A stretch of 64,000 bases of DNA from Patescibacteria group bacterium (GTDB lineage Bacteria > Patescibacteriota > Patescibacteriia > JACRDY01): positions 214,175 through 278,174 of the forward strand of contig JBAZFH010000001.1 of NCBI GenBank assembly GCA_041653535.1, in the 5' to 3' direction. Below the pieces are notes generated by a model. The model ran no database searches. It was given only the letters and a program-made list of their open reading frames with translations, and was not told the DNA's origin. The position numbers were made by a program, and so were the translations under genes. Position 1 is the stretch's first letter; every line of letters begins with the position of its first letter. Below, piece by piece: positions 8,540 through 54,076 of the stretch.

Positions 8540-8616
8540 GGCCTCATCGTCTAATGGTTAGCCCGCCTCGACTCGCCGATGGCGAAGCCGAGGCGAGGCG
8601 GGGACGCCAGGTTCTC
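8540..8616 (+). pseudogene. tRNA-Glu 5' half (to anticodon loop TTCTC) interrupted in the D-loop by a 41-nt GC-rich hairpin (8562-8602)
   Basis: TCGTCTAATGGTTAG, insert, GACGCCAGGTTCTC matches positions 8-35 of the intact tRNA at 9192. The insert CCCGCCTCG...CGAGGCGGG is a perfect inverted repeat. Acceptor 5' strand GGCCTCA cannot pair with the downstream 3' strand. Confidence 0.75.
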
Positions 8617-8887
8617 TATGATGTATATAATTTATTGGTTAATTGATTTTGACAATAATAAAACCTATGTTGGTTTTACTGATGATTTAAAAAAGAGAAT
8701 CGCCGATCATAAATATGGCAAAACCAAAACAACGAGGAAATTTAAAATATCCAAGGTTTATATTTTAGAGCGGGTTGAAACTTTAGAGCTAGCTAGAAAA
8801 AGAGAAAAATATTGGAAGTCGGCGGCTGGCAGGAGAAAGTTAAAGGAGAAGTTTAGTAAAATTATGGCGCTATCGTCTAATGGTTAG
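8579..8887 (+). CDS. small GIY-YIG nuclease-superfamily protein, copy 1 (true start probably ATG 8618)
   Basis: YIIYWL...KTYVGFTDDLKKRIADH..G...KYWK is a GIY-YIG core. The track start lies inside the tRNA-derived hairpin; MMYIIYW at 8618 is more plausible. The last 6 codons plus TAG stop are encoded by the 5' end of the next tRNA copy (GCGCTATCGTCTAATGGTTAG). Confidence 0.75.
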   Translation: MAKPRRGGDARFSMMYIIYWLIDFDNNKTYVGFTDDLKKRIADHKYGKTKTTRKFKISKVYILERVETLELARKREKYWKSAAGRRKLKEKFSKIMALSSNG

Positions 8888-8942
8888 CCCGCCTCGACTC
8901 GCCGATGGCGAAGCCGAGGCGAGGCGGGGACGCCAGGTTCTC
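8866..8942 (+). pseudogene. tRNA-Glu 5' half, copy 2, with the same 41-nt hairpin insert
   Basis: Identical to copy 1 except for acceptor strand GGCGCTA, which matches the intact tRNA. Confidence 0.75.
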
Positions 8943-9213
8943 TATGATGTATATAATTTATTGGTTAATTGATTTTGACAATAATAAAACCTATGTTGGT
9001 TTTACTGATGATTTAAAAAAGAGAATCGCCGATCATAAATATGGCAAAACCAAAACAACGAGGAAATTTAAAATATCCAAGGTTTATATTTTAGAGCGGG
9101 TTGAAACTTTAGAGCTAGCTAGAAAAAGAGAAAAATATTGGAAGTCGGCGGCTGGCAGGAGAAAGTTAAAGGAGAAGTTTAGTAAAATTATGGCGCTATC
9201 GTCTAATGGTTAG
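8905..9213 (+). CDS. small GIY-YIG nuclease-superfamily protein, copy 2 (identical protein; probable start 8944)
   Basis: Protein 100% identical to copy 1. Its stop codon TAG 9211-9213 is the GGTTAG of the intact tRNA-Glu D-loop. Confidence 0.75.
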   Translation: MAKPRRGGDARFSMMYIIYWLIDFDNNKTYVGFTDDLKKRIADHKYGKTKTTRKFKISKVYILERVETLELARKREKYWKSAAGRRKLKEKFSKIMALSSNG

Positions 9214-9263
9214 GACGCCAGGTTCTCATCCTGGTAATCGGGGTTCGATTCCCCGTAGCGTCA
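9192..9263 (+). tRNA. tRNA-Glu (anticodon CUC), no encoded CCA
   Basis: Manual cloverleaf: acceptor GGCGCTA/TAGCGTC (7 bp, one GU), D stem GTCT/GGAC, anticodon stem CCAGG/CCTGG with loop TTCTCAT, T arm CGGGG-TTCGATT-CCCCG, discriminator A. Confidence 0.85.
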
Positions 9264-9351
9264 TGTACCGATGAGCTGTTCGACCTGCCTGCCGGTAGGC
9301 AGGGAGATGTTAAAGGGTATCCCTTCAGATGAGACTCGGAAGGATTGAAAT
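9264..9351 (+). ncRNA. conserved tRNA-trailer structured element, copy A
   Basis: Begins immediately after the tRNA 3' end. Shares three collinear blocks with copy B at 12498-12585: TACCGATGAGCTGTTCGA, AAGGGTATCC and TTCAGATRAGACTCGGAMGGATTGAAAT. Each copy carries a different internal hairpin. Confidence 0.5.
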
Positions 9352-10997: not shown

Positions 10998-11160
10998 AAT
11001 TTTTGAAAGTTGTTTTTTAAATTAAAATGATACCTAGGTATAAAAATATTTCACATCTCGACCGTATTTCCATATATATTAATACGTTTGGGAGGCGACT
11101 TTTGGTGCATTTTTAGGTAAATTATGGTTGGTTATTCTTTGATTTTATTAAGACCTCATC

Positions 11161-11232
11161 GTCTAATGATTAGGATGCAGAGTTCTCATTCTGGTGATTG
11201 GGGCTCGATCTCCCGCGGGGGTTAATTATTAT
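11161..11232 (+). pseudogene. tRNA-Glu-like fragment or degenerate tRNA (5' part conserved to anticodon loop TTCTCAT; 3' acceptor strand does not pair)
   Basis: GACCTCATCGTCTAATGATTAGGA...TTCTCAT resembles copy 1 at 8540. A T-arm-like TGGGG-CTCGATC-TCCCG is present, but no 7-bp acceptor helix can be formed. Confidence 0.5.
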
Positions 11233-12451: not shown

Positions 12452-12497
12452 GACCGCTTAGGGGCGACCCGAAAGGGTTCGATTCTCTTTGCCGTCA
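12452..12497 (+). other. tRNA-like 3' fragment (mini T-arm plus acceptor-like 3' strand GCCGTCA)
   Basis: GGGTTCGATTC T-loop motif within AAAGGG-TTCGATT-CTCTTT, then TTGCCGTCA. No matching 5' half upstream. Confidence 0.4.
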
Positions 12498-12585
12498 TAT
12501 ACCGATGAGCTGTTCGAGAGATGCTGAAGGGTATCCTCACAAAGGAGTCCTTAGGACCTTCAGATAAGACTCGGACGGATTGAAA
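12498..12585 (+). ncRNA. conserved tRNA-trailer structured element, copy B
   Basis: Has the same three conserved blocks as 9264-9351, with a different internal hairpin (GGAGTCC-ttag-GACC). Confidence 0.5.
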
Positions 12586-12629: not shown

Positions 12630-13046
12630 GTGGTTTTTTGTTATGATATTAATGTACTAAATATTATAATAAAAAATATGTCTAACGTAGAAAGGTCAGA
12701 GATGCCTCCTTTGCAAAACTTTGAAGTTCAAAAAATTCCAATTGGAAATGGCTATATCTATAATATATTTTTTAAGTCACCCGAGGAGGCAGAGCAAGCA
12801 ATTAAAGATTTTTGGGGCAATGTCCAGAATGCAGAAAGTATACAACGGAATATTGGTTCTGGCACATTACAGCCACTTAAACACGCGATTACTTTGGGGG
12901 ACAGGACTGAAGCCCGTGATATATCAAAACATCCTGATTCAGAAAAACATCCAGGGATGGCAGTTTATGTAAATTTTAATGGTAACACTATGGCTTTAAG
13001 CCAACGTGGTGAAGAGGCGTTGCGTAAATTAGGCTATATTGAGTAG
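12630..13046 (+). CDS. hypothetical protein (likely start at Met 12678)
   Basis: 138 aa ORF with no recognisable family. Confidence 0.4.
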   Translation: MVFCYDINVLNIIIKNMSNVERSEMPPLQNFEVQKIPIGNGYIYNIFFKSPEEAEQAIKDFWGNVQNAESIQRNIGSGTLQPLKHAITLGDRTEARDISKHPDSEKHPGMAVYVNFNGNTMALSQRGEEALRKLGYIE

Positions 13047-13069
13047 TTTTTAATTTATCCCCTTAAAAC

Positions 13070-13283
13070 ACCCCCCCTACCCCAAGGGGGTCTCTAACCA
13101 CTCTAAATTGACCCTCGAAGAAGCCCTTAAAGATTGCTATTTGGTGGTGTCAGACCGACACGGCTCACCAAAGAAAAAAAGTATCGAGACCCGATGGGTA
13201 TCTCGTGGTTCTAGACCCGAGTGCCCTTTGGCCTTGATAACTAGATAGACTAAAAAATCACCTGTAATTTAGATGATTTTTTG
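13070..13283 (+). ncRNA. candidate small structured RNA, copy 1 (core ~13074-13167 plus extension and intrinsic terminator)
   Basis: Core matches 19152-19245 with GGGTCTCTAACYACYCYAAATTGAYCC and AAGCCYTTRAAGATTGCTAKTTGGKGG..CAGACYGACAMGGCTCA. The 5' hairpin differs (CCCCC/GGGGG here, AGACCC/GGGTCT in copy 2) while keeping pairing. Ends in a hairpin plus T-run. Confidence 0.5.
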
Positions 13284-13298
13284 GTTGTTGATAACTGT

Positions 13299-13328
13299 TT
13301 GACAGATATATGGTTATGGGTATATACT
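13299..13328 (+). promoter_or_regulatory. sigma70-like promoter for the DUF5320 operon
   Basis: TTGACA at 13299-13304 with TATATA/TATACT about 17 nt downstream. Confidence 0.45.
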
Positions 13329-13392
13329 CATAATAGGTAATATTAATCAAAGGTCGTATTGCCAAAGATTATTAAATTTAACAAAAAAACAT

Positions 13393-13644
13393 ATGCCAAG
13401 AATGGACGGAACAGGTCCTGTGGGCCAAGGCGCCGGTACTGGTCGAGGAATGGGTCCTTGCGGTGGCGGAATGAGAATGGGTTGGTGCGGTCGAGGTCGA
13501 GGTCAAGGGCGAGGTTGGGGTTTTGGGAGATTTTTTCGTTCTCCTAAGAATCAGCTTCAATCATTAGAAGAGGAAGAAAAGATGCTGACAGAAGAATTGG
13601 AAGCGGTAAAAGCTGAAAAGGCGGCCCTTAAGGATCAAAAATAA
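13393..13644 (+). CDS. DUF5320-like small protein (MPRxDGTGPxGxG...TGRGxGxC glycine/arginine-rich N-terminus, C-terminal coiled coil)
   Basis: MPRMDGTGPVGQGAGTGRGMGPCGGG... followed by EEEEKMLTEELEAVKAEKAALKDQK. Confidence 0.65.
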   Translation: MPRMDGTGPVGQGAGTGRGMGPCGGGMRMGWCGRGRGQGRGWGFGRFFRSPKNQLQSLEEEEKMLTEELEAVKAEKAALKDQK

Positions 13645-13743
13645 GAGAAGGTGTGGAATCCGGCCTTCTGTCGTAAGACAGGGGGCCGGGCAACCTTCTC
13701 TTATAGCCAAGAATATCAAGTTTAATATAATTTTTCAATATTT

Positions 13744-14031
13744 ATGCCAAGACCACAACGTTGTCTATGTAAAGGAATAAAATTCGAACCCGATATAAGC
13801 TATTTTAAACCGCAAGGCGTGCCGATGCGGAATCTGCAGGTTATAGAACTTTCGCTCGAAGAAATTGAGGCGTATCGGTTACGCCATATTGAGGATATGG
13901 ATCAACAGGCGGCGGCCGAGAAAATGCATACCTCGACCAGCACTTATCAGCGGATACTCTATTCTGCTTATGGGAAAATTGCCGATGCCCTGATTAACGG
14001 CAAGGCGATTAAAATAATTAAACATCAATAA
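13744..14031 (+). CDS. DUF134 / UPF0251 family putative DNA-binding protein
   Basis: MPRPQRCLCKG...YFKPQGVP...LEEIEAYRL...QQAAAEKM..S.STYQRIL..A..KIADALINGKAIKI matches the COG1342 pattern. Confidence 0.75.
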   Translation: MPRPQRCLCKGIKFEPDISYFKPQGVPMRNLQVIELSLEEIEAYRLRHIEDMDQQAAAEKMHTSTSTYQRILYSAYGKIADALINGKAIKIIKHQ

Positions 14032-14032
14032 T

Positions 14033-14773
14033 ATGCTCACGCTATTAACAATAATTATCGCGACATTTATCATTACTCTCTGTGTCTGGGTGGCGGTATT
14101 GTTTATTTTTTTGAAAAAAGATATTTTGTCAAAAATTACAATGTTTCTGGTTGCTCTGTCCGCCGGAGCGTTGATGGGCGGCGCTTTTTTGCATCTAATG
14201 CCTGAAGCCTCGGAAGAAATAAGGACGGATACATTGTTTGCCATTTTTTTAATTTCTTTTGCCGTCTTTTTTCTGATAGAAAAACTACTCCACTGGCGAC
14301 ATTGCCATAAAGCTGATTGCCCAGTTCATACTTTCGGTCATATGAATTTAATCGGTGACGCCATTCATAATTTTATCGACGGACTGATAATCGCCAGTAC
14401 CTTCATGGTTGATTTTAGTTTAGGTATGGCGACGACATTAGCTGTAGCTATTCACGAAATACCGCAGGAAATCGGCGATTACGGCGTTTTGATCCATGCC
14501 GGATTTAACAACAAAAAAGCTTTGACCCTTAACTACCTCGTCGCTCTCACGGTGGTATTGGGCGGTATAGCGGGATATTTTTCTTTTTCCCACTTGCAGA
14601 ATATCTTGCCTTATCTCCTACCGTTTGCGGCCGGTGGTTTCGTTTACATTGCCGCTTCCGATCTGATGCCGGAAATAAGGAAGGAGACGAACATAAGTAA
14701 GTCCATGGGTACATTTCTTGTTTTTCTTCTGGGTATATTAATGATGTATTTAATCAAATTAATTAATCATTAA
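14033..14773 (+). CDS. ZIP family metal (zinc/iron) transporter
   Basis: Multi-TM protein with a His-rich loop (HWRHCHKADCPVHTFGH) and ZIP signature HEIPQEIGDYGVL. Confidence 0.75.
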   Translation: MLTLLTIIIATFIITLCVWVAVLFIFLKKDILSKITMFLVALSAGALMGGAFLHLMPEASEEIRTDTLFAIFLISFAVFFLIEKLLHWRHCHKADCPVHTFGHMNLIGDAIHNFIDGLIIASTFMVDFSLGMATTLAVAIHEIPQEIGDYGVLIHAGFNNKKALTLNYLVALTVVLGGIAGYFSFSHLQNILPYLLPFAAGGFVYIAASDLMPEIRKETNISKSMGTFLVFLLGILMMYLIKLINH

Positions 14774-14777
14774 AAGC

Positions 14778-15539
14778 ATGCCGGGTAAAATAAAAAACAC
14801 TTTATTGATTTTTTCCGGCAAAGGTGGCGTCGGCAAATCGACCATAGCCACAAACCTGGCCATGTCTTTTGTCCAGAAAGGATTAAAGGTCGGTTTACTT
14901 GATGCTGATATTCACGGTCCAAATTTGGCCTTAATGCTAGGTGTGCAGGAAAAAGCGGTTTTCTCTTACGGAGAAGATTTTATCTTGCCTATTGAAGTGA
15001 GCAAAAATTTATCATTAATTTCCATTGCTTATTTTATACCCCAAAAAGATACTCCGATAATTTGGCGTGGTCCGGCAAAAATGAAAATTATTGAAAAATT
15101 TGTCAAGGAAGTAAGTTGGGGCGACCTTGATTGGCTGATAGTTGACGCCCCTCCAGGTACCGGGGACGAACCATTATCAATCGCTCAATTATTGCCAAAA
15201 TCAGGAGCGATTATAGTCACTACGCCTCAAGACGTCTCATTACTTGATTCCAAGAAAGCGATAAATTTTGCCAAAAAACTTAAATTAAAAATTTATGGTC
15301 TGATTGAAAATATGAGCGGTTTGCAATGCCCTCATTGCAATAAAGTCATCAATTTATTCAAAAAAGGTGGTGGAGAAAAAATTGCTAAAAAATATAAAAT
15401 ACCATTTTTGGGACGCATTCCTCTTGATCCGGAAATAGTTATTTCCAGTGACAGTGGTCGTCCAATTGTCATAAATAAAAAATCAGATACCACAAAGAAT
15501 TTTTTATTAATAGCTGATAAAATAATTAATAAGAAATAA
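14778..15539 (+). CDS. Mrp/NBP35 (ApbC) family P-loop ATPase, Fe-S cluster carrier-like
   Basis: GKGGVGKST deviant Walker A and a CPHCNK CxxC motif. Confidence 0.85.
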   Translation: MPGKIKNTLLIFSGKGGVGKSTIATNLAMSFVQKGLKVGLLDADIHGPNLALMLGVQEKAVFSYGEDFILPIEVSKNLSLISIAYFIPQKDTPIIWRGPAKMKIIEKFVKEVSWGDLDWLIVDAPPGTGDEPLSIAQLLPKSGAIIVTTPQDVSLLDSKKAINFAKKLKLKIYGLIENMSGLQCPHCNKVINLFKKGGGEKIAKKYKIPFLGRIPLDPEIVISSDSGRPIVINKKSDTTKNFLLIADKIINKK

Positions 15540-15543
15540 AAAT

Positions 15544-15813
15544 ATGAAAGTGCTAAAATTTGGAGCAGTATGGTGTGCGGGATGTCTTGTCATGAAGCCG
15601 AGGTGGCAGCAGATTGAAGCAGAAAATCCTTGGCTTTGCACTGAATATTATGATTTTGACCAAGACAAGGAAATCATTAAAAAGTACAACATTACTGATG
15701 TTTTGCCGGTTTTCGTTTTTTTAGATAAAGATGGTAAAGAATTTCTACGTTTAGACGGTGAAGTAGATAAAAATAAATTGATCGAAACTATCAATCAGAA
15801 CAAGGAAAAATAA
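15544..15813 (+). CDS. thioredoxin-like protein
   Basis: WCAGC active-site motif; 89 aa with a Trx fold. Confidence 0.7.
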   Translation: MKVLKFGAVWCAGCLVMKPRWQQIEAENPWLCTEYYDFDQDKEIIKKYNITDVLPVFVFLDKDGKEFLRLDGEVDKNKLIETINQNKEK

Positions 15814-15816
15814 ATT

Positions 15817-17106
15817 ATGAAATTAACATTTAAAAAGATAATCGTGATATTTTTGTTAGGTTTGGTTGTATCAACACAAGTTGTTTCTGCTAGTAATTTT
15901 CCAATCAACGCTTATTTTTTCTACGGAGACGGTTGCCCCCATTGCGCTGAAGAGAGACGGTATTTATTTAATGATTTAAAAAATGATTATCCCAACTTGC
16001 AAATCTATGAATATGAAATCTATAACAACAAAAATAACGCTTTGTTGTTGCAACAAACAGCCGATAAGCTTGGCGTCAGTATCGGCGGCGTGCCGTTTTT
16101 GGTTATCGGCGATAAACAGTTTGTTGGGTTTGCTAATGGCATAACCTCCGGCCAGATAGAACAGCGGGTAAAAGAATGTTCCGTCGCATCATGTCAAGAC
16201 TCAGTCGCCGCTATTGTCGGGATTAAGGTTATTAAACCTCAACAGCCGGCAGTTCAAGAAAATAAAAATCACGAGCCAATCAAAAATGAAAATGTAGCTA
16301 TAAAAAATTCGATCGAAGCGCCAATCGTGCAAGAGCCGCCTAGCCAAGAAAATAAAGATAAATTAATAAAATTACCGTTATTGGGTGAGGTCAATGCGGT
16401 GAATTTTTCTCTACCTATTTTAACTATAATTATGGGGGCTTTGGACGGATTTAATCCTTGCGCCATGTGGACACTTTTATTTTTGATTAGCCTGCTTTTG
16501 GGTATGGAAAACAGGAAAAGAATGTGGCTTCTAGGTAGCGCGTTTATCGTCGCTTCTGCCACCGTTTATTTTCTGTTCATGTCAGCTTGGCTCAATCTAA
16601 TTCTCTTCTTAGGATTCGTGGTTTGGGTAAGAACATTGATTGGATTATTGGCTCTTTTGGGTGGCGGTTACAGTCTTAAAGAATTTTTATTTAATAAGGA
16701 CAGCGGCTGTAAAATAGCCGGTGACGAGCAAAGGCAAAAAACCTTTGCCAGATTAAAGTCAGCGGTTCAACAAAATAGTTTATGGCTGGCGCTGGGGGGA
16801 ATTATTATTTTAGCTTTCGCCGTTAATTTAGTTGAGTTGATTTGTTCGGCCGGACTTCCGGCGGTTTACACACAAGTTTTAGCTTTAAATGAAATGGCTG
16901 GTTGGCATTATTACCTTTACATTCTGCTCTATATATTCTTTTTTATGTTGGACGATTTATTTATCTTTTTTATCGCTATGATTACCTTAGAAATGACGGG
17001 AGTCACCACCAAATATGCCAGAGCATCTCGTTTAATCGGCGGATTGGTAATGTTGGTGATTGGTTTAGCGTTGATATTTAAGCCGGAATGGATAATGTTT
17101 AATTGA
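15817..17106 (+). CDS. fusion of secreted thioredoxin/glutaredoxin-like domain and DsbD/CcdA-type transmembrane thiol-disulfide transporter
   Basis: Signal peptide, GDGCPHC CxxC motif, a P/Q/E-rich linker, then TM helices with conserved cysteines (FNPCAMW and ICSAGLP). Confidence 0.65.
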   Translation: MKLTFKKIIVIFLLGLVVSTQVVSASNFPINAYFFYGDGCPHCAEERRYLFNDLKNDYPNLQIYEYEIYNNKNNALLLQQTADKLGVSIGGVPFLVIGDKQFVGFANGITSGQIEQRVKECSVASCQDSVAAIVGIKVIKPQQPAVQENKNHEPIKNENVAIKNSIEAPIVQEPPSQENKDKLIKLPLLGEVNAVNFSLPILTIIMGALDGFNPCAMWTLLFLISLLLGMENRKRMWLLGSAFIVASATVYFLFMSAWLNLILFLGFVVWVRTLIGLLALLGGGYSLKEFLFNKDSGCKIAGDEQRQKTFARLKSAVQQNSLWLALGGIIILAFAVNLVELICSAGLPAVYTQVLALNEMAGWHYYLYILLYIFFFMLDDLFIFFIAMITLEMTGVTTKYARASRLIGGLVMLVIGLALIFKPEWIMFN

Positions 17107-17966
17107 GTATGGCTGGTAATTTCTTTTTACCTTTTACTTTAACTATTTTAGCCGGACTTTCGACCGTCATCGGCGCTGGTTTGATTTTTTGGGCCAGAAC
17201 CACTTGCACTAAATTTTTGTCTTTCGGTTTGGGACTGTCGGCCGGCGTGATGATTTATTTGTCTTTTTTTGAATTGCTCAAGGAATCAAATAATTTTTTT
17301 CAAGAAGCTTCCAGTGGCGGTTATCATTGGTTGGTAGTTTTGATGTTTTTAGTCGGTTTGGCGATTGCCGGCGTAATCGACGCCTTTACTCATAATCGTA
17401 TGGAAACTTGTTCGGTTGCTGATTACGGATTGAATGGCGGCGGGGATGCCGTTCAATGTCCGAACGATGGATTTGGCGGACGATGTCGTCGCCGAAGGTA
17501 TTGGTCGAGACGGCAAGCTCTTTTGCAAACAGGGACAATTACCGCCATAGTTATTGCTCTGCATAACTTTCCCGAGGGGATAATTACCTTTACCACCGCT
17601 AGCATTAATCCTTTGTTTGGTTTATCGGTCGCCATCGCTATCGCCATCCACAATATACCGGAAGGTTTCTGTGTCGCCTTACCGATTTATTACGCAACGC
17701 AGGATAAGAAAAAAAGTATTTTGTACGCTTTATTGGCCGGTTTAGCCGAACCGCTGGGAGCACTGATTACTTATCTGATACTTTTTCCTTTTATTAATAA
17801 TTTTGTTTTAGGTATAATGTTGGCGCTGGTTGCCGGTATTATGGTCTATGTAGCTTTTGATGAACTTTTGCCCGCCGCCAGGAGATTCGGTCACGGACAT
17901 ATAAGTTTATTTGGCCTAGTGGTTGGCATGATAATTATGGCGTTTAGTTTATACTTGTTAAAGTAA
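17103..17966 (+). CDS. ZIP family zinc transporter (ZupT-like)
   Basis: HNFPEGI and HNIPEG motifs in TM helices. Start overlaps the upstream stop. Confidence 0.8.
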   Translation: MSMAGNFFLPFTLTILAGLSTVIGAGLIFWARTTCTKFLSFGLGLSAGVMIYLSFFELLKESNNFFQEASSGGYHWLVVLMFLVGLAIAGVIDAFTHNRMETCSVADYGLNGGGDAVQCPNDGFGGRCRRRRYWSRRQALLQTGTITAIVIALHNFPEGIITFTTASINPLFGLSVAIAIAIHNIPEGFCVALPIYYATQDKKKSILYALLAGLAEPLGALITYLILFPFINNFVLGIMLALVAGIMVYVAFDELLPAARRFGHGHISLFGLVVGMIIMAFSLYLLK

Positions 17967-17969
17967 TTT

Positions 17970-19085
17970 ATGTTTAAGAAAATAATTTTATTATTATCCA
18001 TTTTGTTTCTCCTAGCGCCAATTTTTGTATCGGCTCAAACAGAGAATAATGCCGAGGATTTGGTTGATCGGGTTTTTAAAGCCGAGGTGATAAAGATTTT
18101 GGAAGAAAAGACGCTAGAGAGAGAGGACGGCTCAAGCGCGTTGCAGCAAAACCTGCTTCTGCGCGGGCTGGAAAAGGAATGGCGAGGCAAAGAATTTGAG
18201 CATCAAGGAATTTCTAAAATTGATGTGGCTAGCGCCAATACCTACAAAGTCGGCGATAAAGTTTTGGTCAGTGAAGTCAAGACGGTTGACGGCGCCACGA
18301 ATTATTATATAACTGATCTAGTTCGCAGCGGTTATTTATATTGGCTGGCTTTTATTTTTTGTGCCGTAATTATCTTTATTAGCAAAAAGAAGGGCATTAA
18401 GTCGTTAATAAGTTTAGTAGTCAGTTTCATTATCATTATTAAATTTATCGTCCCGCAAATTGTCAACGGCGCCAGTCCTCTTCTAGTCGGCGTATTCGGA
18501 GCGTTAATAATTTTAGCGATCATTATTTATCTAACTGAAGGGTGGAATAGGAAGTCGCATATTTCCGTAACCAGCGTCTTTTTTTCGTTATTAGTCACTT
18601 TTGTTTTATCTTGGATATTTACCTCTTTAACCAGATTGACCGGCATGGCTCAGGAAGAAGCGATGTTTCTGCTTGGTACGAACGGTGGGGCGATAGATTT
18701 TCAAGGTTTGCTTTTAGCGGGAATTTTGATCGGCACAGTCGGCGTTTTGGATGATATTATCGTCGGTCAAGTGGAATCGGTTAAACAAATTAAGAAAGCT
18801 AATCCTGACCTCACTAATAAGCAGGTTTATAAGTCGGCTTATGAAGTCGGCAATACTCATTTGGGAGCGATCGTCAATACTTTGTTTTTAGTTTATGCCG
18901 GAGCCAGCCTGCCGCTTTTGTTACTTTTTTATCTCAACCCGATGGGAACAGTTTCTTTTTCGCAGGTAATTAATAATGAGTTGATAGCTACGGAAATTGT
19001 CCGCACTCTTGTCGGCAGTATCGGCGTGGCTTTATCCATGCCGATCGCCACTCTTTTGGCTGTTTGGTTTATAAAAAACAAATAG
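17970..19085 (+). CDS. YibE/F-like integral membrane protein
   Basis: Signal peptide plus an extracytoplasmic N-domain, followed by about 7 TM helices. Architecture resembles YibE/F; the family assignment is tentative. Confidence 0.45.
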   Translation: MFKKIILLLSILFLLAPIFVSAQTENNAEDLVDRVFKAEVIKILEEKTLEREDGSSALQQNLLLRGLEKEWRGKEFEHQGISKIDVASANTYKVGDKVLVSEVKTVDGATNYYITDLVRSGYLYWLAFIFCAVIIFISKKKGIKSLISLVVSFIIIIKFIVPQIVNGASPLLVGVFGALIILAIIIYLTEGWNRKSHISVTSVFFSLLVTFVLSWIFTSLTRLTGMAQEEAMFLLGTNGGAIDFQGLLLAGILIGTVGVLDDIIVGQVESVKQIKKANPDLTNKQVYKSAYEVGNTHLGAIVNTLFLVYAGASLPLLLLFYLNPMGTVSFSQVINNELIATEIVRTLVGSIGVALSMPIATLLAVWFIKNK

Positions 19086-19151
19086 TCGATTTAAACCAAG
19101 GTAAAAGAATCCCTCTATACTGCACTGTCGCATTTGTCGCATTTTCGAATT

Positions 19152-19285
19152 CAGACCCCTACCCGAAAGGGTCTCTAACTACCCCAAATTGATCCCCACA
19201 AAAGCCTTTGAAGATTGCTAGTTGGGGGTTCCAGACTGACAAGGCTCATATCAAAAAAATCTCTATAAATTTAGAGGTTTTTTTG
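19152..19285 (+). ncRNA. candidate small structured RNA, copy 2, with intrinsic terminator
   Basis: See copy 1 at 13070. Terminator TCTCTAAATTTAGAGG plus T7. Confidence 0.5.
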
Positions 19286-19562
19286 ATGTAGGTAAAATTG
19301 CATTTGGAAAAATTATGAGGTATATTAAAGAAGAAGATTTAGAAAATAAATAAAATTTATGTTAGGCGAACCAAAAATTGAATCAAGTAATGAAATCAGT
19401 CCAGAAGAGCTGGGTGCTAAAGGATATTTTATCAAAGCACATTATTCTTTGGAAGAAATTGCGAAAGAGGTGCGAAAGGCATTAAAATAGTGTATGACAG
19501 TTTTTTTGTTTCCCCGCTTTAGATGAGGTATAATTTCTTTTAGTTAATAAATAAAAAACAAT

Positions 19563-19733
19563 ATGAATAAAAATGCCGGTGGTGGCGCTGCCTACGGACT
19601 CGGTCTGATTGGTGCGGCGATATACTACATCTCAACAGCAACCAGTTTTTGGCTAGGAGTTTTGGGTTTTCTCAAAGCTTTGGTTTGGCCAGCTTTTTTG
19701 GTTTATGGACTGCTGAAGTTTTTGGCAATGTAG
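19563..19733 (+). CDS. small hydrophobic protein (56 aa, two predicted TM segments)
   Basis: ATG preceded by a TATAAT-like box at 19529-19534. Not in the ORF track because it is under 60 aa. Confidence 0.4.
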   Translation: MNKNAGGGAAYGLGLIGAAIYYISTATSFWLGVLGFLKALVWPAFLVYGLLKFLAM

Positions 19734-19895
19734 ATTAAGATTTTTAAATTAATTTGCTTGAAAGCCCTCGCTTTACGGCGAGGTTTTTAATACAAGGAGA
19801 TCGGGTGAGTAAGTAGTGTTTTGAGGGTAGCAGTTATTGTTGACAAGTATTTATAATTATGTTAGTGTAAAATATGATTTAAATACAAAGAACTT

Positions 19896-20267: not shown

Positions 20268-20400
20268 TCTTCGCCCCACATCAGATCATAAACCCTTGCT
20301 TTACGGCGGGGGTTTTGTCTATCCAGACAAATCGTCAATCGTACGGTTTTTTGCTATAATTAAACCAGCGATATATTTATATAATTAATTCAAAAAAACT

Positions 20401-36348: not shown

Positions 36349-36626
36349 ATATTTGAGCTAAAAAGAGTCAGTCTGTTTTTGAGTTGACTTCTTTTTGCTT
36401 GAGTTGATCAAAACGGTTTTTGGTGTTAAGCTGGTAGTACAACCTAATCAAGTGGGTCTAAGCAGGGGTATAAGAAAAATACCGTTGCCCCTTTTGAGTA
36501 TACAGGGGATGGGGATAAAGAATTAGTATTTAGTATATTGTTATAGGGGATTGTTTTTGCGAACGAGAGGTATAAAATCCCTACATTCTATATACTACAT
36601 ACTACATACTATCTATATACTAATTT

Positions 36627-38555
36627 ATGGAATTTAAATTAAAATCAAATTTTAAACCAAAAGGTGATCAGCCAAAAGCGATCAAGGAGTTAGTCGCCGG
36701 GTACGAAAAATACCCGCAGCAGACTTTGCTGGGCGTCACCGGTTCGGGCAAGACCTTTACTGTTGCCAATATGATAGCCAAGGTGGGTAAACCGACCTTA
36801 ATTTTGTCGCACAACAAAACTTTGGCAGCGCAGCTGTACAACGAGTTTCGTGATTTTTTCCCAGAAAATAAGGTTTGTTACTTTGTTTCTTATTATGACT
36901 ACTATCAGCCGGAGAGCTATTTGCCGATTACCGATACTTATATTGAAAAAGACGTTCAGATAAACGAGAAGATCGAGCAGCTGCGACTTGAAGCTACGGC
37001 CAGTCTAATGTCGCGCGACGACGTGATTGTTGTGGCGTCGGTTTCTTGTATTTACGGTCTCGGTCGGCCGGATAGTTTCAAGGCCAGCGCTTTTGAGCTT
37101 CGAGTTGGTCAAAAAATCACTCCACGCGAGCTGGTCGGGGAGCTGGTTAATATTCAATATGAAAATAGCGATTTGCGTTTACACTCGGGAACTTTTCGTT
37201 TGCGCGGTAGTATTGTCGAAGTAATCGCCGGATCGGCTTCGACGGTTTGGCGTTTCGAGTTTGACGAAAGCAGACTCGTTAAGATTACTGAGCTGAATCC
37301 AATTTCTTTCAAAAAAATAGGCGAGTTGTCTCGTGTCTGGATATTTCCGGCCCGACATTTCGTGGCCAATCCGGAAGAAGTGAAAAAAGCGATGGCCAGT
37401 ATTCGCACCGAGCTAAAGGAACGCTTGCCGCAGCTTGGTCAGATTGAAGCCTACCGTTTGGAAAAAAGGACTAATTATGACCTAGAAATGATCGAGCAGT
37501 TTGGTCACTGCAAAGGAATAGAAAACTATTCTCGACATTTTGATGGGCGACTACCTGGTGAAAAGCCGTATACTTTGATCGATTATTTTGCTGCTAAAGG
37601 CGACTGGATGATGGTGATTGATGAAAGTCATGTGTCTTTACCACAGGTGCACGGTATGTATGCCGGCGACCGTGCGCGTAAGGCCAATCTAATTGATCAC
37701 GGTTTTCGCTTGCCGTCGGCCTATGACAACCGGCCACTGACTTTTGAAGAATTTGAAAAATATCTCGGTCACGTGGTTTATACCACAGCAACGCCGGCAG
37801 ATTATGAACGGCAGAATTCCGGTCAGATCGTCGAGCAGATTATTCGTCCGACCGGACTGATCGATCCAGAAATTATTATCAAACCGGCTGAAGGTCAGAT
37901 TAAAGACGTCGAAAAAGAAATCCGTAAGGTGATTGATAGCGGTTATCGTGTTTTGGTCACCACTTTGACCAAGCGTTTAGCCGAAGACCTGACCAATTAT
38001 TTGACAGAACAAAATATTAAGACCCGATATTTGCATAGCGAAATCGACACTCTGGAAAGAACCAAGATTTTGCACGATTTGCGTTTGGGTAAATTTGACG
38101 TGCTGGTTGGTATCAATCTTTTGCGTGAAGGACTGGATATCCCCGAAGTGGCGTTAGTAGCAATATTGGACGCAGACAAAGAAGGTTTTTTGCGCAACGC
38201 GCGTAGTTTGATTCAGACTATCGGTCGCGCAGCTCGTAACGTTGATGGCAAGGTAATAATGTACGCCGATATTGAGACTGGATCGATCAAAGAAGCGGTG
38301 AGTGAAACCAATCGTCGTCGTCAGATACAGAGGGAATATAATACCAAGCACGGCATTACGCCGCAGAGCATTAAGAAAGGAATCAGAGAAAGCGAAGAAG
38401 TTATTTTGCCAGAGTTAAAAGGTAAAGACCTTGATCGCGAGCAGATGATTGTTGAGCTGGAACTAGCGATGCAAGCGGCAGCGGAGGAATTAGACTTTGA
38501 GCGAGCAATAGAACTGAGGGAAAAGCTAAAAGGGCTTAAGGGGAAAAAGGAATAG
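36627..38555 (+). CDS. uvrB: excinuclease ABC subunit B
   Basis: GVTGSGKTFT helicase motif I, beta-hairpin region, and C-terminal UVR domain. Confidence 0.9.
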   Translation: MEFKLKSNFKPKGDQPKAIKELVAGYEKYPQQTLLGVTGSGKTFTVANMIAKVGKPTLILSHNKTLAAQLYNEFRDFFPENKVCYFVSYYDYYQPESYLPITDTYIEKDVQINEKIEQLRLEATASLMSRDDVIVVASVSCIYGLGRPDSFKASAFELRVGQKITPRELVGELVNIQYENSDLRLHSGTFRLRGSIVEVIAGSASTVWRFEFDESRLVKITELNPISFKKIGELSRVWIFPARHFVANPEEVKKAMASIRTELKERLPQLGQIEAYRLEKRTNYDLEMIEQFGHCKGIENYSRHFDGRLPGEKPYTLIDYFAAKGDWMMVIDESHVSLPQVHGMYAGDRARKANLIDHGFRLPSAYDNRPLTFEEFEKYLGHVVYTTATPADYERQNSGQIVEQIIRPTGLIDPEIIIKPAEGQIKDVEKEIRKVIDSGYRVLVTTLTKRLAEDLTNYLTEQNIKTRYLHSEIDTLERTKILHDLRLGKFDVLVGINLLREGLDIPEVALVAILDADKEGFLRNARSLIQTIGRAARNVDGKVIMYADIETGSIKEAVSETNRRRQIQREYNTKHGITPQSIKKGIRESEEVILPELKGKDLDREQMIVELELAMQAAAEELDFERAIELREKLKGLKGKKE

Positions 38556-38592: not shown

Positions 38593-38961
38593 TTATTTGC
38601 TTTCAGTGCTGCGTAGAAGACCGGTTAGCAGTCTGCTGCAATCATCGGTCATAACAGATAACTTTTGATAAATATCGATTTTGAGATAACCAATGTCACT
38701 GGCGACTATCAGTTGAGCCTGAAGTTCTGTTAGCGATCCCTTGGAGATAGAATAAAATTGTGATTTCTCTGCCTTGGACCTTCGAGAAAAGCCTTCGGCG
38801 ATGTTTGATACAACAGAGATTGCTGCGCGGCGTATTTGGTTGGTTAGACCATAAACTTCTTTTGATGGAAAAGACTCGGTTGTCTGATAGATTTCTTTAG
38901 CTAAGACTCTGGATTTTTGCCAGGCGATTAGATCGGTGAATGATTTTATTTTGTCTGTCAT
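38593..38961 (-). CDS. four-helix-bundle protein (23S rRNA intervening-sequence protein family)
   Basis: EVYGLTNQIRRAAISVVSNIAEGFSR signature. Confidence 0.75.
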   Translation of the reverse strand: MTDKIKSFTDLIAWQKSRVLAKEIYQTTESFPSKEVYGLTNQIRRAAISVVSNIAEGFSRRSKAEKSQFYSISKGSLTELQAQLIVASDIGYLKIDIYQKLSVMTDDCSRLLTGLLRSTESK

Positions 38962-52997: not shown

Positions 52998-53084
52998 GTA
53001 TACAGGAGACAGGATACAGGATGCAGGAGATAAAGAAGCTTCTGTCTCCTGTCTCCAGTCTCCTGTCTCCAGTCTCCTAATTTT

Positions 53085-53897
53085 ATGAAGGTCGCGCTCG
53101 TACAATTTACTACTTGGGATAAGGCTTATTATTTTGATCCGGCGCAGGAAAACTTTGCGGTTGGGGATTTTGTTATTGTGGAAACGCAGATAGGAATAGA
53201 TATGGGGAAAATTATCGGTTTTGAAGATATAGCCAAGTTGGCTGACGAAGCAGAAATTAAGCCAATTACCCGCAAGGCGACAAAGGACGATTTAAAAAAA
53301 CGTCTTAGCCTTGATGAGGAAAAGGAAGAAGCGGTTAAAAACTGCAAAAAAATGGTAACTAAGTACGCCCTGCCGATGAAGCTTGTTGACGCTCACTTTT
53401 CTTTTGACGACAAGAGAATTACTTTTGCCTTTATTGCTCAAGGCAGAATAGATTTTCGCGAATTAGTTAAAGATTTATCCCGTTATTATAAAAAAAATAT
53501 TCGTTTACAGCAGCTCGGTATTCGTGATGAAATGAAAATGTGCGGCGATATCGGTCCTTGCGGCATGCAGCTGTGTTGTCAAACTTTTGTCAAAGAGCTC
53601 GGCAGCATTACTTCTGATTTAGCTGAGGCGCAACAAGTGGTGCATCGTGGTTCGGAGCGCCTTTCTGGTTGTTGCGGTCGCCTGCGTTGCTGTCTGGCTT
53701 TTGAAAAAGAAGTTTATCGTGATTTAGCTGCCAAAATGCCACCGCTTGGTTCAATCGTAAAAACAGAGAGCGGTAAGGGCGAAGTGGTTGGTTGGAGGCT
53801 GATCAAGCAAATGGTGGACGTGCGGGTGGTAACCGACAATGGCAAGGAAAAAGAAGTAGTTTTTATTGAAGTTCCAGTGGATAAAATTTCTCGTTAA
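53085..53897 (+). CDS. PSP1 domain protein (RicT/YaaT-like)
   Basis: PSP1 C-terminal domain with conserved Cys cluster CGDIGPCGMQLCCQ. Confidence 0.75.
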   Translation: MKVALVQFTTWDKAYYFDPAQENFAVGDFVIVETQIGIDMGKIIGFEDIAKLADEAEIKPITRKATKDDLKKRLSLDEEKEEAVKNCKKMVTKYALPMKLVDAHFSFDDKRITFAFIAQGRIDFRELVKDLSRYYKKNIRLQQLGIRDEMKMCGDIGPCGMQLCCQTFVKELGSITSDLAEAQQVVHRGSERLSGCCGRLRCCLAFEKEVYRDLAAKMPPLGSIVKTESGKGEVVGWRLIKQMVDVRVVTDNGKEKEVVFIEVPVDKISR

Positions 53898-54076
53898 TAC
53901 GAGTTTAGATTTTTAGTTTAGATCCCCTAAGTAGGGGGTTTTTAGTACAGGAGACAGGAGACAGGAGACAGGAGGCAGGATGTCTTGTTACTTGTGTATT
54001 TTAATCCTGTACCCCGCATCCTGTATCCTGTATCCTGTTTATGCTATAATAAAATCAAATCAATAAACTTATTTTT

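Follow-up and report, generated by a model that had tools for sequence, protein, structure and literature searches.

Within the 64,000 nucleotides of DNA that were analysed here (referred to as the window), an operon that runs from a DUF5320 gene to a YibE/F gene is bracketed by two plus-strand copies of one non-coding segment, the first of which (copy 1) follows a small orphan gene and the second of which (copy 2) follows the YibE/F gene. Features of this locus are listed below in order of position, together with the analyses by which each was defined.

12678-13046, plus strand: upstream ORFan gene of 122 aa (translation), with a promoter-like site at 12643-12670
13067-13179, plus strand: copy 1 core (nhmmer, blastn, repeat family D4; covariance model R1, 137.9 bits)
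13073-13090, plus strand: copy 1 5' hairpin (CCCCCU / AGGGGG, 6-nt loop; fold -11.4 kcal/mol, z -1.3)
13180-13242, plus strand: 63-nt imperfect hairpin specific to copy 1 (fold -29.3 kcal/mol, z -4.7; alignment gap in copy 2)
13248-13286, plus strand: copy 1 terminator-like hairpin (fold -14.3 kcal/mol, z -4.1; A-run before, T-run after)
13299-19085, plus strand: operon bracketed by the two copies (Pfam; promoter scan)
19147-19260, plus strand: copy 2 core (nhmmer, blastn, repeat family D4; covariance model R1, 133.6 bits)
19153-19174, plus strand: copy 2 5' hairpin (AGACCC / GGGUCU, 10-nt loop; fold -7.9 kcal/mol, z -1.6)
19248-19289, plus strand: copy 2 terminator-like hairpin (fold -20.9 kcal/mol, z -8.0; A-run before, T-run after)

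Copy 1 starts 20 nt past the stop codon of the 122-aa gene, and no terminator lies between them. The gene itself returned only a self hit among 5.8 billion proteins; it was considered as a conserved partner of the repeat and rejected, being an ORFan and unrelated to the 123-aa gene that lies after copy 2. The operon then follows in the order promoter, DUF5320, DUF134, ZIP, Mrp/NUBPL ATPase, thioredoxin, a 429-aa unknown, ZIP, and YibE/F. Its promoter (TTGACA-18-TATACT, 13299-13328) is an example of the canonical promoters used by this genome, and it lies downstream of copy 1, as the original prediction has it. Copy 2 starts 62 nt past the YibE/F stop codon, again with no terminator between, and the copy 2 hairpin is the first terminator after the YibE/F gene. 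The genome is a MAG of an uncultured member of the Patescibacteria, and its YibE/F protein carries the annotation "Patescibacteria group bacterium". The nearest homologues of this YibE/F protein are at most 78% identical (amino acid) and come from Magasanikbacteria/Falkowbacteria-type MAGs. The genes that were inspected have no obvious Shine-Dalgarno sequence upstream of their start codons.

Upstream of either copy, no sigma-70 site scoring at least 9/12 with 16-18 nt spacing was found. A TATACT hexamer is present at 19116-19121, roughly 30 nt upstream of copy 2, with a poor -35 at a spacing of 19-20 nt. Between the YibE/F stop codon and copy 2 there are also two tandem copies of a 10-nt repeat (GTCGCATTT(G/T), 19127-19145) that copy 1 lacks. 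Further downstream, two GC-rich terminator hairpins that are 85% identical to one another (19762-19788 and 20290-20316) follow the gene for a 56-aa membrane protein and the 123-aa gene, respectively.

The region to the left of copy 1 is variable and contains a tRNA-Glu gene, duplicated tRNA fragments, and a 3.2-kb island (DUF5666, Fic-MarR). A perfect 326-nt tandem duplication (2.0 copies) occupies 8546-9264, and each unit comprises the 5' part of tRNA-Glu, a 41-nt GC-rich hairpin, the 5' strand of the anticodon stem, and a 102-aa GIY-YIG ORF. The two ORFs lie at 8579-8887 and 8905-9213, and the second runs into an intact tRNA-Glu(CTC) at 9191-9264; the arrangement looks as if a GIY-YIG element had entered tRNA-Glu copies at their anticodon loop. 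A stretch made up of the 3' end of tRNA-Glu and 20 nt of its flank (9241-9283) recurs at 12475-12517 with 86% identity, and a further tRNA-like fragment is present at 11125-11215. These fragments bracket the 3.2-kb island, which encodes two DUF5666 proteins and a Fic-MarR protein and has no integrase. A tRNA gene and a duplicated tRNA 3' end were also found just upstream of the DUF5320 operon in two relatives (L034 and L053), which suggests a recurrent integration hot-spot.

Elsewhere in the window, many intergenic arrays in which a 7-nt unit is repeated in tandem (about 4-5 times) were observed, at 36581, 38552, 39082, 41983, 52186, 53042, 53947, 54004, 55073, 58356, and 60694. The arrays at 38552 and 39082 form an inverted pair around a single minus-strand ORF (38593-38961), and those at 53042 and 53947-54038 form an inverted pair around a single plus-strand ORF (53085-53897).

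Limits of the two cores were set by nhmmer self-comparison. The repeat search aligned 13081-13178 with 19162-19259 (family D4; 98 nt, 76% identity, ungapped), and gapped blastn of copy 1 against copy 2 extended this to 105 nt at 78% identity (E ~1e-18), in keeping with the two plus-strand intergenic copies and ~95-nt core that had been described from the sequence. Two conserved blocks, GGGTCTCTAAC..AAATTGA and AAGATTGCTA.TTGG.GGT, are found exactly twice each in the 64 kb, with 0.02 and 0.19 occurrences expected, so the repeat is real and not a chance match. There are two copies in the window and no more. By alignment (blastn and nhmmer), similarity begins at the 5' hairpin and ends at the T-run, and upstream of the 5' hairpin no similarity between the two loci was detected by alignment or self-comparison. 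The unit thus defined, from 5' hairpin to T-run, is about 140 nt long in copy 2. Across the core there are two C-rich stretches, a G-rich stretch (UUGGUGGU in one copy, UUGGGGGU in the other), the block CAGAC.GACA.GGCUCA, and an A-run. The longest runs identical between the copies are 11 and 10 nt, as expected under a uniform divergence of 22%, and therefore give no sign of uneven constraint.

Copy 1 differs from copy 2 by one addition, a 63-nt hairpin that lies between two A-runs. The extension of copy 1 that had been noted earlier does exist; it measures about 70 nt and forms a single long hairpin, where a hairpin-rich stretch of ~85 nt had been proposed. This insert (13180-13242) resembles a miniature palindromic insertion, and no second copy of it was found in the window or in the loci fetched from other genomes.

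Both terminal hairpins show the stable stem-loop and U-run of an intrinsic terminator, each being followed by T6-T7. A simple consensus terminator scan did not list them because their stems are A/U-rich with 2-3 G-C pairs. Self-comparison aligned the two hairpins over 43 nt at 74% identity. They are therefore homologous, and the terminator belongs to the duplicated unit; the hairpin and T-run predicted for each copy were found, and the idea of two independent genes, each with a terminator of its own, was set aside.

In stability, the 5' hairpins do not significantly exceed shuffled sequences (z -1.3 for copy 1, -1.6 for copy 2). In the original prediction, this first helix was held to differ in sequence while preserving its pairing through compensatory changes. 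The two-sequence alignment does not bear this out, as zero double-sided pair changes were counted in either register. In the copy 2 register, three C-G pairs are common to both copies and invariant, and three outer pairs are unpaired in copy 1; in the copy 1 register, just one pair is common. Beyond the common C-G pairs, the remainders of the stems sit in alignment columns that are not homologous. Each copy forms its own hairpin in a shifted register, and the 5' hairpin is kept through this register shift in a C-rich/G-rich context, not through covariation.

A consensus fold of the core was calculated from the two sequences using RNAalifold and gave a structure conservation index (SCI) of 0.52. 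Compared with column-shuffled alignments of the same two sequences, the consensus energy had a z of -1.8 on the plus strand and -0.3 on the minus strand. When all helices of 4 bp or more available to both copies were enumerated, they proved to be several mutually exclusive pairings of G-rich and C-rich segments, and no convincing covariation was seen among them.

Neither copy touches a credible coding sequence, as was proposed originally. In six-frame translation, no frame is both open and conserved in the two copies, and the sole long open frame of copy 1 has 64 codons. An exhaustive HMMER search of this frame against 1.84 billion representative proteins matched only two unrelated repetitive proteins, whose internal tandem repeats inflate a weak chance similarity. 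A protein-coding or pseudogene reading of the segment was rejected given the absence of a conserved frame and these matches. Rfam 15 returned only two tRNAs for the whole window at gathering thresholds, and at E <= 10 both loci gave only chance hits (best 22.8 bits against a threshold of 50), so that no Rfam family matches, in line with the earlier failure to match the segment to SRP, RNase P, 6S or tmRNA motifs. A literature search on small RNAs of Patescibacteria found nothing relevant.

Relatives of the segment were sought by scanning several collections with exact and degenerate DNA patterns that fit both copies. The GTDB species-representative genomes gave 0 hits, and IMG/VR gave 0 or chance hits only. 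Among the JGI metagenomes there were eight hits, of which only one (contig L006) is real; it belongs to the same organism and is 100% identical to copy 2. Phage and plasmid collections, searched as well, yielded chance hits only. Syntenic loci were additionally retrieved via YibE/F homologues (21 GTDB loci plus 20 metagenomic/MAG contigs, the latter around YibE/F homologues of 72-78% identity and their closest kin). The related Patescibacteria loci (~0.5-0.7 Mb), 25-30 of which are syntenic for the same YibE/F or DUF5320 operon, were then searched using nhmmer (nhmmer --max) and a covariance model, and only the window's own copies were recovered. Roughly 5 kb of additional sequence from the same genome beyond the window also held no further copy. 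The search for more copies added none to the two already described, either in the window or in the other sequence scanned.

The operon core (DUF5320-DUF134-Trx-unknown-[ZIP]-YibE/F) is present in five relatives (L034, L050, L052, L053, and L054), all of them without the element, which is absent from both of the positions that it holds in the window. The collections contain no close relative of the organism (best YibE/F match 78% aa) and no congener, and for the latter reason the absence of homologues is weak evidence against function. One candidate, located 3' of YibE/F in L052, initially scored well (nhmmer E 0.05 in a small search; Smith-Waterman z 5.5 against shuffles). Against real 300-nt windows taken from the other loci, the full unit ranked only about 7th, with its score coming mostly from the terminator, and the core alone ranked 100th (copy 2) or 343rd (copy 1). 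Manual alignment gave 48-53% identity and no pairs shared with the window copies, an Rfam search of L052 returned nothing, and the candidate was rejected as having failed the control against real windows.

Across genera, the DUF5320 operon has kept its promoter and 5' UTR almost base for base (TTGAC..GGGTATATAYTCATAATAGGYAA...AAAGGTCG..TTGYC). The conserved stretch lies at 13299-13392 in the window, 2830-2924 in L034, 320-404 in L050, 640-709 in L052, 6880-6975 in L053, and 5150-5241 in L054, and it could represent a leader element or the operator of the DUF134 regulator.

The organism also occurs in the sample behind SRR18595300, in JGI Ga0172380, and in the NCBI MAG with locus tags WC310_. 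Its independent assemblies match the window with 100% identity, and the copy 2 core is identical in two of them (L001 and L006). Mapped onto the window, the contig ends of these assemblies fall as follows: L039 ends at window position 13223, inside the copy 1 insert; L001 starts at 13730; and L006 ends at 19168, inside the copy 2 5' hairpin, and at 20301, at the repeated terminator (20290-20316). Breaks of this kind may be a hint of additional copies of the same sort, or of differences between strains.

The reading that we prefer, and which is offered tentatively, is one of two sibling RNA modules, each of which would be transcribed as the 3' end of the mRNA upstream of it. Four features fit it: the unit boundaries (5' hairpin to U-run), the lack of a promoter within the unit, the strand shared with the flanking genes, and the position of each copy between a stop codon and the first terminator. 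From this arrangement we infer the transcription and processing of the modules and any regulatory role that they may have. Each module would comprise a 5' hairpin, an ~85-nt core with several C-rich stretches and one G-rich stretch, an A-run, and a terminator hairpin with its U-run; having no promoter of its own, it would be read out on the plus strand by upstream transcription. The mRNA of the 122-aa ORFan would end in copy 1, and that of the DUF5320-YibE/F metal operon in copy 2. The hairpin of each module would terminate its upstream transcript, that of copy 2 being the putative operon terminator, and the copy 1 terminator may also shield the operon promoter from upstream read-through. The core could be released as a stable 3'-derived small RNA (~140 nt from copy 2, ~215 nt from copy 1) or, alternatively, could act in cis on 3'-end stability.

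Small RNAs derived from 3' UTRs, such as CpxQ, SroC, DapZ, and MicL, use the terminator of the parent mRNA. The copies resemble them in starting 20-62 nt past a stop codon, in ending at the first terminator, and in having no separate promoter. They differ from them in conservation, since the known RNAs are conserved with their parent gene, whereas here the operon is conserved across genera and the element is not. The slightly better consensus fold on the plus strand (z -1.8) than on the minus strand (z -0.3) counts in favour of the 3'-end reading, as does the lack of coding capacity; counting against it are the SCI of 0.52, the lack of a compensatory pair, identical runs no longer than uniform divergence would leave, the A/U-rich terminator stems that the simple scan did not list, and the relatives that carry the operon without the element. 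Retention of both copies at ~22% divergence in a small, gene-dense genome may be taken to argue for some constraint.

The main rival to this 3'-end reading is a neutral or selfish origin, in which the copies would descend from an ancient local duplication of an intergenic or terminator segment, or would be a selfish repeat of low copy number that came to lie at two gene ends by chance, and only the terminator hairpins would matter, if anything. We consider this somewhat unlikely. It would account for the failure to detect a homologue outside the organism, for the failure to see a conserved fold and the apparently uniform divergence, and for the setting of copy 1, which adjoins an ORFan in a variable region with att-like tRNA fragments and has itself been struck by a 63-nt palindromic insertion between A-runs; the breaks of two independent assemblies in or beside the element (L039 at 13223 and L006 at 19168) point the same way. 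Short intergenic dispersed repeats and MITEs (Correia, RUP, BOX, and REP) are comparable in that they are short, non-coding, located at gene ends, and able to supply terminators, and the palindromic insert of copy 1 between its A-runs also recalls them. However, the core has neither terminal inverted repeats nor a target-site duplication, there are only two copies in 64 kb and none in the ~5 kb of extra sequence from the same genome, and the insert is single-copy. Small Patescibacteria genomes also seem to carry little neutral DNA, and two neutral copies would probably not stay alignable at 78%. An origin of the copies as recombination or attachment sites, produced as direct repeats when the 6-kb metal operon integrated as an island, is extremely unlikely and has already been largely refuted. 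Same-orientation direct repeats do bracket one operon, in a neighbourhood with tRNA-linked att-like duplications (families D3, D14, and D16), but no integrase or recombinase domain is encoded between the copies, and the operon is ancestral, as it is present without the repeats in related genera. The copies are also unlike attachment sites in that their 105-nt alignment is 78% identical and contains no identical core of more than 11 nt.

Readings in which the segment acts as an RNA in some other way were weighed against the same observations. That the copies are stand-alone sibling small RNA genes, with their own diverged and unrecognised promoters and intrinsic terminators, is unlikely in our view. 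Their unit size, shared strand, and conserved core plus terminator are typical of siblings in general, and sibling bacterial small RNAs with intrinsic terminators are familiar from OmrA/OmrB, PrrF1/PrrF2, and Qrr1-4; like these, the repeat consists of two same-strand, non-coding units of ~100-140 nt a few kb apart, with a conserved core, a homologous terminator, and diverged flanks. Coding capacity is absent, and the TATACT at 19116-19121 lies ~30 nt upstream of copy 2. Nevertheless, the -35 that accompanies this hexamer is poor and spaced at 19-20 nt, nothing comparable occurs upstream of copy 1 (which lies only 20 nt past the preceding stop codon), and the upstream flanks share no similarity. 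In the absence of a shared or convincing promoter, a 3'-UTR origin fits better than a free-standing small RNA gene. The repeat is also unlike the known siblings in having no recognisable promoter, no homologues in related genera and no Rfam match. Such RNAs might pair in trans via the conserved unpaired blocks UCUCUAAC, AAAUUGA, and AAGAUUGCUA and the C-rich tracts, yet blastn (word size 7) found no extended complementarity to the rest of the window, and a duplex-energy scan of 62 start regions gave unrealistically long duplexes with no standout. C-rich small RNAs of the RsaE/RoxS type (Rfam RF01820) are similar in that the repeat is ~100 nt long and carries C-rich tracts (CCCCCCCUACCCC, ACCCCAAA, and AUCCCCAC) followed by a terminator, but unlike them it has no Rfam hit at any threshold; because the genes inspected here lack an obvious Shine-Dalgarno sequence, an anti-SD mode of action is doubtful. 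Very little weight is given to a cis-regulatory leader (riboswitch or attenuator) that would sense a signal such as a metal and use the following terminator as its expression platform, with the DUF5320/ZIP operon as target after copy 1 and the small ORFs at 19359-19733 as target after copy 2. A terminator and then plus-strand genes do follow each copy, the G-rich UUGG(U/G)GGU has two upstream C-rich segments as alternative pairing partners, and the neighbouring genes are metal-related. What makes a riboswitch-type leader so unlikely is that a strong promoter belonging to the DUF5320 operon itself lies downstream of the copy 1 terminator, and this promoter and its 5' UTR are conserved in relatives without the element. 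The terminator hairpin also does not overlap the core, from which the 63-nt insertion in copy 1 separates it further, no promoter is present upstream, and there is no Rfam match even at E <= 10.

A more far-reaching reading would make the core a structured Patescibacteria RNA that is new and lineage-restricted and has a functional link to the DUF5320-ZIP-YibE/F metal operon; it appears distinctly improbable. One possibility under it would be a 3'-end-derived regulator produced in proportion to operon transcription, with the second copy coupling the neighbouring ORFan to the same circuit.

The segment is a genuine repeat, orphan and non-coding, that occurs in two copies and ends in terminator hairpins. 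That it is an RNA element of a known general kind, akin to the sibling or 3'-UTR-borne RNAs of other bacteria, is plausible. Its present value is that of a candidate in one uncultured species, with no structural or comparative support, rather than a discovery. To our knowledge, hardly any regulatory RNAs have been described from the Candidate Phyla Radiation, whose members lack many of the classical regulators; if verified, a pair of sibling RNAs flanking a metal-homeostasis operon would provide a useful entry point.
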